Shown here piece by piece: positions 42,590 to 46,190 of a DNA stretch of 64,000 bases (positions are counted from its first letter, which is position 1; each line of letters begins with the position of its first letter). Under the pieces are notes generated by a model that saw only the letters and a program-made list of their open reading frames with translations, ran no database searches and was not told the DNA's origin. This stretch comes from Raja brachyura. Its lineage: Eukaryota. The stretch lies in contig OY740822.1 of assembly GCA_963514005.1 (NCBI GenBank), forward strand, positions 4,340,001 to 4,404,000, read 5' to 3'. Both the position numbers and the translations under genes were made by a program.

Positions 42590-45500
42590 CGTTATTAGCT
42601 GCGCAGTACTAGCGGGAATATGCGCGGACATTTTTAATCTCTCCCTACTCAGTTCTGAGGTACCACATGTTTCAAGATGGCCATCATTATACCAGTGCCG
42701 AATAAAAGCATCTCTCCTGCTAAATGACTAACTCCCAGAGGCCTTGACATACTCAATTATGTAATATTTTGTCAGTCAGTCTGTCAGTCAGTTGTATTCG
42801 TCACGTGCACATGAAGTGCAGTGAAATCAATTTGTCATCAGCGGTACAATAAAAAAAAGAGCACACAATACACAATACAAATTTAATACCAACATCCACC
42901 ACAGCATTCGTCACCGTGGTGGAATGCACAACATTTGGTCAGTCCTCCTTCGTTTTCGCCCATGGTCGGGACCACAACCCTCCGCAGTCGCCGCTGCCAG
43001 CGTCCAGGTGTGCAGACAAGGTAAGTCCAGGAAGTCCTGAATCGGTGCCTCCCCAGCGGAGACCGCGGCTTCAAGATGGTGCAGGCCGCTGGCCGGCGGT
43101 CTAAGATCTAACGTCCCCGCAGCGCCGGGGCCAGAAGCACCGCAGACCGCAGTGCCGGCGGTCTGAGCTCTTCTCCAGGGATTCCCGGCGAGGGATCCCG
43201 CTCCCAATGGTAAGTCCCCGCTCCGCCCGCGGTAGAAATAGGCCGCTGGCCGGCGGTCGGAGCTCTTCTCCACCGGGGTCCCGAACGAGGAAACCCAGGC
43301 TCCGGACGCCTTGCCAGCTGGAGCTGCGCAGACCGCTAGCTATGGAAATAATTCTCACCAGCAGCCAAGACCCACTGCAGTTCGCTTACCACCATAAAAG
43401 GTCCACGGACGACTACGTAGAACCAAACTCATCACTGGAACATCTGGATAAGAGAGACACCTGAGACTGACGCCGATTCATAGAATGTAACCCTGTCTTG
43501 AGTACTGTAGATGGTTTTGCATGCAACCAATAACATAGTTACCTCAGTACCATTAACCCCGCCTAGTTAACATCAATCATAACGCCTTCCCCTTCCTGGA
43601 TACGGTTCACTAGAAGAATGTAGCCAGTATTTGAGGATGTATGTAATACCTTGTGCTATCATTAAAATGTGTTGAACACTTTTAGAGTTTGTAAATTGCT
43701 TATTTACATGGTGTCAGAAGTGGGATCAAGACGTTGGCCAGGTGCCTGGAGGAGGGTAAACACATTCGAATCCTCGGGAGAATTAATTGGATCTGCATCA
43801 TAGGATTCAGCAACATCGGGCTGTGGGTTGGAACAGCTATCAGATTGTTTAAGCATGTTTAGACTGGGTCTGGAAATCTGTACCTGTCTCCCACGAGAAC
43901 GGAATGAGCGGCAGGCAGAAGCGAAATGATTCAGTTTGTTACAAAAATTACAAGCCTTGCCATAGGCAGGGCACGTCGACCGTCTGTGGTGCATGTAGTT
44001 ACAGTTAGGGCACCTTTTTGGGGGCACATCAGCAGGACCAGGGTTGGCACGCGGCAGAAAAGCATTGTTTCCCCTCTGAGGCAGGCTCCAGCACCCGAGG
44101 TTTCAGCTGGCGCTGGGCAATTGGGATGGTAGATCTGGTTGTTCTGGACATCAGACGCTGAGCAGGGGACCCCATGGCCGGATCTCTGGAAACATTCCTG
44201 AGGTTCAGGAGATCCAAATACAAATCAGAGTTAGACAGTCTCGCTTGTTCCATCAGAAGCTTGGCGCTGCGGACGGCCCGTTCAGCAAGGCCGTTGCTCT
44301 GTGGGTACTCCGGGCTGCTGGTATGAGAGCGGCGGGGCATAGGGGCCCGGGGCCTGCGGCTTCGGCTCATTAACCGCAAGCAGGTGTTGTCGGCTTCTAC
44401 GGTAGATGGTTCCCTCATAGTCGACCAGATACGAACGAGGTGAGTCGGCCACCCCAACCACAGTAGCCAGACGGGAGTGACCACTGGCGGTTTGCAATCG
44501 AACAACCTGTCCAGGCAACAAAGGATCGAGTGGTCTGCACGACCGATCGTGGGAACGCCGCTGGCTGTCATGTTTCTCTTGAATGCGCCTCTGCACAGAG
44601 GCAGGCTCCAGCACCCGAGGTTTCAGCTGGCGCTGGGCAATCGGGATGGTAGATCTGGTTGTTCTGGACATCAGACGCTGAGCAGGGGACCCCATGGCCG
44701 GATCTCTGGAAACATTCCTGAGGTTCAGGAGATCCAAATACAAATCAGAATTAAACAGAATCGCCATAACGAACAGGTGGCTTGCTGGTCCGGCCCGAGC
44801 GCGTACGGATGCTAAGGGGGAGACATCCCTCACGTCGGAGATGGTGATCCGGAAGCTGCGGAAACACTTCTCCACGTTTGGGTCCCCTGTCAGGCTGCAG
44901 ACTGACAATGGCAGGCAGTTTACCAGCCGTGAGTTCAAAAGTTTTGCTGACAAATGGAATTTTGTGCATTTCACCAGCAGCCCGGAGTACCCACAGAGCA
45001 ACGGCCTTGCTGAACGGGCCGTCCGCAGCGCCAAGCTTCTGATGGAACAAGCGAGACTGTCTAACTCTGATTTGTATTTGGATCTCCTGAACCTCAGGAA
45101 TGTTTCCAGAGATCCGGCCATGGGGTCCCCTGCTCAGCGTCTGATGTCCAGAACAACCAGATCTACCATCCCGATTGCCCAGCGCCAGCTGAAACCTCGG
45201 GTGCTGGAGCCTGCCTCTGTGCAGAGGCGCATTCAAGAGAAACATGACAGCCAGCGGCGTTCCCACGATCGGTCGTGCAGACCACTCGATCCTTTGTTGC
45301 CTGGACAGGTTGTTCGATTGCAAACCGCCAGTGGTCACTCCCGTCTGGCTACTGTGGTTGGGGTTGCCGACTCACCTCGTTCGTATCTGGTCGACTATGA
45401 GGGAACCATCTACCGTAGAAGCCGACAACACCTGCTTGCGGTTAATGAGCCGAAGCCGCAGGCCCCGGGCCCCTATGCCCCGCCGCTCTCATACCAGCAG

Positions 45501-46190
45501 CCGGCTCCTGTCCCAGCCAGCGTTCCCTGCATGCCTCGGTCCCCATATCGAGCGCCCGGTTCCCCTCTGCGCGGGTCACCTGTTGGCGGTCGCGGTTCTC
45601 CCTCCGCTGTTCCTCCAACCCCACCGCCCTTCCCTGGTTCCCCTGCTGTCTCGGGTCCCCCTGTTTTTTCTGCTCCTCCGGGGGAAGGGGGAGGCATCCG
45701 TACGCGCTCGGACCGGATCAGCAAGCTACCTGTTCGTTATGGCGATTCTGTTTAATTCTGTTTAATTCTGTTGTAGTGACAACGGTCTGTTTCTTTTAAA
45801 TTTTCTAAGGGGAAGGATGTAGATGGTTTTGCATGCAACCAATAACATAGTTACCTCAGTACCATTAACCCCGCCTAGTTAACATCAATCATAACGCCTT
45901 CCCCTTCCTGGATACGGTTCACTAGAAGAATGTAGCCAGTATTTGAGGATGTATGTAATACCTTGTGCTATCATTAAAATGTGTTGAACACTTTTAGAGT
46001 TTGTAAATTGCTTATTTACAAGTACCATTTTACCATCCGAGCTTATCACCAAACTCGCGGGACTTAGAGTCAGCACACATCCATGCAACTGGATCATCGA
46101 CTTCCAGTCCAACAGAACCGAATCCGTGAGTATAGGGGACGATTCATCCTCTACGTTAATGTACAACGCTAGTTCTGCCGGGGTTCCGTG
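42590..46190 (+). mobile_element. Old Rex1 RT fragment split by a minus-strand non-autonomous element (42772-43330) and by the Gypsy insertion
   Basis: ADIFNLSL..SEVP, DPLQFAY..KRSTDD and LITKL..L..S...CNWIIDF remnants in register across the insertions. Confidence 0.7.
43506..46020 (+). mobile_element. Young non-autonomous Gypsy LTR element with scrambled, inverted interior
   Basis: 203-bp LTRs (43506-43708 and 45818-46020, TG..CA, identical by eye); AGTAC TSD; PBS TGGTGTCAGAAGTGGGAT complementary to the tRNA-Leu(CAA) 3' end; PPT at 45807-45817; integrase TDNG..F..PQSNGLAERAV. Confidence 0.95.

Follow-up and report, generated by a model that had tools for sequence, protein, structure and literature searches.

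A Mag-like Ty3/Gypsy copy with an inverted interior in Raja brachyura, probably born in one aberrant cycle of reverse transcription

How does an LTR retrotransposon come to carry part of its interior backwards between complete ends, and could such a copy have a function? The question is raised by an element that occupies positions 43506..46020 of a 64,000-nt stretch of Raja brachyura DNA (the window, as we call the whole stretch that was analysed). We consider it probable that the element is a defective, single Mag-like Ty3/Gypsy copy that arose in one aberrant cycle of reverse transcription and was then inserted by integrase.

The ends of the element are well defined. The 5′ LTR (43506..43708, plus strand) and the 3′ LTR (45818..46020, plus strand) each comprise 203 nt, start with TG, end with CA, and are 100% identical over their whole length; judged by this identity, the insertion is young. 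Both LTRs are flanked by the pentamer AGTAC (43501..43505 and 46021..46025, plus strand), the 5′ copy of which lies within a host LINE, and homology to LINE reverse transcriptase (RT) in the right flank likewise places the insertion in this LINE. AGTAC is present only once in the uninterrupted paralog of the host LINE (20780-20900, minus strand), and both flanks align up to the pentamer. The identical LTRs, the TG/CA ends, and the verified target site duplication (TSD) therefore indicate an integrase-mediated insertion. A polypurine tract (PPT; 45807..45817, plus strand) adjoins the 3′ LTR. The only polyadenylation-like signal found in the LTR by a motif scan is ATTAAA, and no canonical TATA or AATAAA was seen in the LTR sequence, both of which are weak evidence. 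The window contains no further copy of the LTR or of the interior.

The surroundings are rich in repeats. Between 900 and 56500, CR1-like LINE fragments form a dense nest on both strands, and the status of this nest as a piRNA cluster would bear on the finding. The host-LINE paralog at 20605-22110 is itself internally inverted (20605-21135 on the minus strand, 21142-22110 on the plus strand) with an inverted duplication of 167 bp, an arrangement that resembles the outcome of twin priming. A candidate young LINE with an uninterrupted 1,015-aa endonuclease-RT frame lies at 14655-17702, next to a short TTGAA tandem, and a separate Gypsy-type RT fragment is found at 56778-57290. Two frames at 27513-29271 we take to resemble a DIRS-type element. 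The frame at 52868-53647 encodes a GPR139-like receptor of the rhodopsin family, of a type expanded in elasmobranchs; the best 120 matches listed, 119 of them named, are from sharks and rays, which places the host among the elasmobranchs. Seven tRNA-like calls (5464-5551, 9478-9550, 17927-17999, 21697-21778, 30454-30524, 33233-33305, and 46648-46729) comprise four Val, two Ser, and one Glu; those for Val and Ser lie inside repeated segments and are probably SINE heads or parts of repeats.

The interior of the element starts with inverted pieces. The first (43722..44085, minus strand) derives from gag and contains two CX2CX4HX4C knuckles in a 116-aa open frame. The earlier note had recognized antisense gag at 43727-44077; the limits are wider once the microhomologies defined by contigs of the parent family are included. 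Two inverted integrase pieces follow at 44078..44322 and 44313..44749 (both minus strand), which are the reverse complements of 44973-45217 and 45066-45502 with 1 mismatch in 245 and 1 in 437 positions, respectively, and here the earlier coordinates and the estimate of about one mismatch each were borne out. The inverted C-terminal tail of the integrase (44746..44812, minus strand; reverse complement of 45694-45760) is also present as claimed, but differs from its sense counterpart by three internal mismatches in 67 nt rather than by about one. Beyond it lies the sense 3′ part of the integrase (44822..45755, plus strand), which does follow the inverted pieces, separated from the tail by a 9-nt filler (44813..44821, plus strand).

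This sense part matches Pfam rve and retains the second Asp and the Glu of the integrase at a spacing of 35; the N-terminal zinc domain and the region of the first Asp are missing. It contains only two purine runs of at least 10 nt, one of which (45680..45694, plus strand, 15 nt) resembles a second PPT and adjoins the tail breakpoint. A 353-aa open frame (44694-45755) spans the junctions and fuses antisense-derived residues to the truncated integrase; this frame is probably not translated, because 13 ATGs lie between the start of the primer-binding site (PBS) and position 44840.

The remaining coding pieces allow a cautious classification. The sense piece matches K02A2.6-like Gypsy proteins (best named match from Leucoraja erinacea, 69%), and protein searches returned no near-identical family member (best 72-73%). 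A weak match to a bacterial integrase-like sequence in a prokaryote genome (44% over 45 aa) was disregarded. The homologs are single gag-pol proteins of ∼1,350 aa that carry RT and RNase H and have a C-terminal integrase; in the element, the integrase adjoins the PPT. On these proteins the gag piece maps to about residues 210-330 and the sense piece starts at about residue 1,070. By this mapping most of pol is lost: unlike in Mag-lineage elements, protease, RT, RNase H, and the N terminus of the integrase are absent. Direct LTRs with TG...CA ends, PBS, PPT, and TSD are present, as in other Ty3/Gypsy elements. Two CCHC knuckles in Gag are characteristic of the Mag lineage, and two are found in the inverted gag piece. 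According to the relevant section of PMC3286476, this lineage also combines a PBS for tRNA-Leu or tRNA-Ser with a 5-bp TSD and LTRs of ∼120-300 bp; the element shares with the Mag-lineage or K02A2.6-like elements a tRNA-Leu PBS, a 5-bp TSD, and short LTRs (203 nt). With RT missing, LTR size, TSD, and PBS suggest a Mag-like Ty3/Gypsy element.

The unrearranged parent of the element can be read from other genomes. Twenty public runs from 14 studies contain the stretch, 17 of them with half or more of the sampled words. Positions 43400-44972 were compared with contigs of four of these runs, from four other organisms (X1, X2, X3, and X18; 65 records); the listing covers 32 of the 79 pieces and 20 of the 34 loose ends. 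Each long piece listed departs from the window sequence in 0-4 letters, and the pieces stop where the element has its junctions (43715/43722, 44085, 44313/44322, 44746, and 44812/44822). The joints listed correspond to the parent layout, in which the LTR is followed by leader and gag sequence missing from the window (∼701 nt between PBS and gag piece in record X1-1) and then by the gag piece in sense orientation. The parent integrase is collinear with the sense copy of the window, 191 letters lying between the two inverted pieces, as from 45502 to 45694. The 5′ LTR shows 0 differences to the parent contigs in X1 and X2.

Among the pieces listed for 43400-44972, none runs across the insertion site or any of the rearranged junctions; this blank weighs neither way, as contigs drop rare variants and the runs are apparently not from the source species. 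X18 is guessed to be RNA and was given no weight as evidence for expression. In most of the four runs the long parent pieces are ∼99% identical or better, with X18 slightly lower, and the host-LINE flank (43400-43505) is barely covered, although this flank is short and holes in it prove nothing. The parent family appears under 12 organism labels at 0.48-0.66 of the sampled words. No parent loci were found in viral contigs or in metagenomes. This distribution could reflect recent horizontal spread or simply close relatives.

How were the pieces joined? Taking the overlaps as defined by the parent contigs, the PBS and the gag piece share 5 nt (junction 1; chance per random join, 0.005). Gag and integrase are joined through 8 nt of microhomology (junction 2, 44078-44085; 0.00014), the two integrase pieces through 10 nt (junction 3, 44313-44322; 0.00001), and integrase and tail through 4 nt inside an 11-of-13 match (junction 4; 0.018). 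At junction 5, the filler is part of a segment (44814-44828) that matches 45685-45699 with one mismatch, that is, the purine run beside the tail breakpoint. Such joins speak to the possibility that the locus is a chimera, put together during assembly or amplification from reads of several family copies. The window is repeat-dense and has two N gaps, as such an origin would have it, but the flanks rejoin exactly at the 5-bp TSD, and a tRNA-derived PBS, a templated filler, joins at imperfect matches, and arms that each have single-base differences of their own are unlike the products of overlap assembly. The anatomy of the junctions, as read from the sequence, argues against mis-assembly, and we regard a chimera as very unlikely.

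The PBS is the most telling of the retained signals. Its 18 nt (43709..43726, plus strand) are a perfect complement of the 3′ end of tRNA-Leu(CAA), and the inverted gag piece overlaps its last five letters. Of ∼4,000 possible places for a breakpoint, as estimated from homolog length, junction 1 takes one of the ∼5 at the PBS end, exactly at letter 18. We take m1A58 of the tRNA to be the cause of a stop after this letter. An antisense probe for tRNA-Leu(CAA) given in the excerpted part of PMC7997516 begins with the identical 18 letters, and the match to the probe stops after letter 18; 18 nt is also the length given for a tRNA-copied PBS in the relevant section of PMC7472051. The parent, in contrast, follows the PBS of the window for only 7 letters (X1, X2, and X18) and then differs at 5 of 11 letters by hand comparison. 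Its contigs depart after 43715 in three of the four runs, with a joint in X1 and loose ends in X2 and X18, whereas the long X3 contig ends earlier. Two loose ends in X3, at 43703 and 43736, may come from a single short record that covers junction 1 and has unrelated DNA on either side; this record is probably from another family with the same PBS, so that perfect PBSs would exist in these genomes. No second PBS-like site is present in the window, and no tRNA-Leu gene is among its seven tRNA-like calls.

In retroviruses, the primer tRNA is copied into plus-strand strong-stop DNA, whereas the PBS of Ty1 and Ty3 is inherited from the genome (PMC7472051, in part); Ty1 and Ty3 accumulate dead-end strong-stop DNA tagged with the tRNA copy (PMC5371799, in part). 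A perfect PBS that ends at junction 1, set against a degenerate one in the parent, would therefore be the mark of a mis-transferred plus-strand strong-stop DNA. The parent PBS is known from contigs of three other organisms (X1, X2, and X18) rather than from the source species, in which the family PBS may already be tRNA-perfect; this would remove the clue from the parent PBS, but not the clue from the position of the junction. Thus, of the signals that had been called intact, LTRs, PPT, and TSD are so, and the PBS is present but is not that of the parent family. Replication signals are retained to the same extent (LTRs, a PBS, and PPT), but the ∼701 nt of leader and gag behind the PBS are lost.

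These observations can be combined into a single path. Plus-strand strong-stop DNA, consisting of the LTR and the 18-nt copy of tRNA-Leu, would have found no complement of its PBS and would have annealed through 5 nt to a plus-sense gag template. Such a template must come from outside, as the inverted gag piece has no sense counterpart in the window. RT would then have copied plus-sense templates backwards, with three microhomology-guided hops from gag to integrase, to integrase again, and to the tail. At the internal purine run it would have crossed to minus-strand cDNA and slipped to 44822. Synthesis would have finished through the 3′ LTR, followed by completion of the minus strand and insertion of the product by integrase. 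The nascent minus strand may instead have copied minus-strand cDNA, by an equivalent path. Aberrant plus-strand transfer was reportedly studied in older retrovirology from the Temin laboratory. Published models for switches of this kind invoke forced copy choice where the RNA is broken, and fragments of displaced plus strand (PMC3187697, relevant section). The templates may have been RNA fragments or displaced plus-strand DNA. A difficulty is that the templates would have to survive RNase H through five switches of a single cycle, in which two of the copied integrase pieces overlap.

Microhomology is also a mark of DNA repair. A normal insertion could have been rearranged later by the host, through microhomology-mediated template switching or end joining with genomic copies as donors. 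Short templated filler is a repair signature as well, TSD and LTRs would be untouched under either origin, and the study of HTLV-1c prefers post-integration repair, at least in the part excerpted (PMC13427564). However, neither a breakpoint at PBS letter 18 nor a PBS that matches the tRNA perfectly, in contrast to the degenerate one of the parent, is predicted by repair, and all donor pieces are from the element's own family, none from its flanks. Later rearrangement by repair is thus an unlikely origin, and we favor aberrant reverse transcription. This origin, on which the earlier note is silent, is the result with the best support.

The differences between the arms bear on the templates. In the sense arm, position 45365 and at least two of the three differing tail positions, 45712, 45718, and 45727, have derived letters, and the inverted arms carry one derived letter (44122). 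At 44521 and its partner in the sense arm, both arms have a common allele that differs from all four runs. The conserved C-terminal integrase motif is kept in the inverted tail but not in the sense tail; its Gly is found in 84 of the 85 homologs that have the motif (217 homologs scanned). The clustering of three differences in a 16-nt part of the tail is unexpected at the rate of the other arms (P ∼0.001). Overall, the alleles are compatible with two templates and do not prove them. A-to-I editing was considered as the source of the mismatches, but the derived state of two or more of the three tail differences in the sense arm led us to reject it; the mismatches show no A-to-I pattern, and the G alleles of the tail are mostly ancestral.

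Could the product of such a cycle act on its own family? From its sequence, an LTR-initiated transcript could form a 437-bp duplex in addition to antisense gag RNA, as had been proposed, and the predicted folds agree: over the full-length transcript, 44313-44749 (left arm) is predicted to pair with 45066-45502 (right arm, within the sense integrase) in helices of 137 and 299 bp, and a partial transcript has a predicted folding energy of −1209.9 kcal/mol. If a transcript from the 5′ LTR were made in the germline, duplex and antisense gag might be processed to siRNA or piRNA and damp the parent in trans, in the manner of Mu killer. The predicted hairpin, an LTR identical to that of the parent in X1 and X2, and arms nearly identical to a family found in several genomes fit this scenario. 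Hairpins of transposable elements can silence homologues in plants (PMC3440606 and PMC11624286, each in part), and cartilaginous fish are reported to have Piwil1, 2, and 4 (PMC10380595, in part), so that the piRNA pathway would in principle be open to antisense RNA from gag and integrase. The precedents found are plant cases, though, the signals seen in the LTR are (weakly) unfavorable, and the arm differences lack the pattern of A-to-I editing. To our knowledge, vertebrates do not have the RNA-directed DNA methylation and RdRP amplification of plants. Long dsRNA in vertebrates mostly meets ADAR and innate sensors. We therefore consider the birth of a functional silencer unlikely.

A second functional scenario is a non-autonomous or defective-interfering subfamily that propagates with the help of intact copies acting in trans. 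The element does have LTRs, a PPT, and a perfect PBS, and the common allele at 44521 would be compatible with a recent common template. The leader behind the PBS, which is expected in a TRIM/LARD or defective-interfering-type non-autonomous LTR family, is not kept. Packaging and dimer signals usually lie in this leader. The 437-bp duplex should in addition hinder export and reverse transcription, and 3′ tRNA fragments can target a PBS more readily when it is perfect (PMC7472051, relevant section). Such a subfamily appears quite unlikely. Action like Mu killer or as a defective-interfering element is thus a possibility rather than a finding, and a small one.

In a bolder form, LTR retrotransposons would write their own silencers in one step, with tRNA-tagged dead-end strong-stop DNA, rescued through template hopping, becoming an integrated, LTR-driven locus for antisense and hairpin RNA, from which siRNA or piRNA control over a newly arrived family would start in the vertebrate germline. 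We hold this to be improbable. If it were true, such loci could be searched for by their signature, a tRNA-perfect PBS next to inverted internal sequence, and if they were transcribed and gave small RNAs, they would offer a testable route to the question of how a new LTR family comes to be recognised by its host. As it stands, the element preserves, like a fossil, a moment of reverse transcription by a vertebrate Gypsy family, and is otherwise one garbled copy, probably without function.

We found no description of an LTR retrotransposon with this anatomy in the openly licensed literature, and the excerpted part of PMC6894440 holds nothing specific on it. Like Mu killer (PMC3440606) and the EVD case (PMC11624286), as described in the excerpted parts of both, the element contains inverted internal transposon sequence able to give hairpin RNA. 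The earlier comparison with Mu killer holds for this inverted duplication of family-internal sequence. However, Mu killer is from maize, derives from a DNA transposon, and is read through from a flanking gene with silencing demonstrated, whereas the host here is an elasmobranch and the hairpin is only predicted. The EVD case is an antisense nested insertion that was described without a test of its siRNA output, and its origin differs from that of the element.

The closest likeness is to inverted defective retroviral proviruses. Inversions account for 6% of 531 HIV-1 sequences (FLIPS inversion class; PMC6235535, in part) and for 1.9% of HTLV-1c sequences, in which deletions show microhomologies of 4-10 nt (PMC13427564, in part). 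The element shares with these proviruses intact LTR ends, large internal loss, inverted segments, and microhomologies of 4-10 nt. Unlike them, it is a germline Ty3/Gypsy copy without env in an elasmobranch, has four inverted pieces in series, and has a probable origin in reverse transcription, to which its apparently tRNA-copied PBS links it. Akin to these proviruses in kind, its own anatomy is neat and probably that of a one-off defective copy.

As in Ty1 and Ty3, the PBS of the family is apparently not copied anew from the tRNA, and yet strong-stop DNA with a tRNA copy exists (PMC5371799 and PMC7472051, relevant sections). Ty3 copies 12 nt of its primer and discards the product, whereas here 18 nt were copied and the product was apparently rescued into an integrated element. 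This suggests that the family, like Ty1 and Ty3, normally does not inherit primer tRNA sequence, and that a tRNA-tagged intermediate can nevertheless be rescued into an integrated, hairpin-capable locus.
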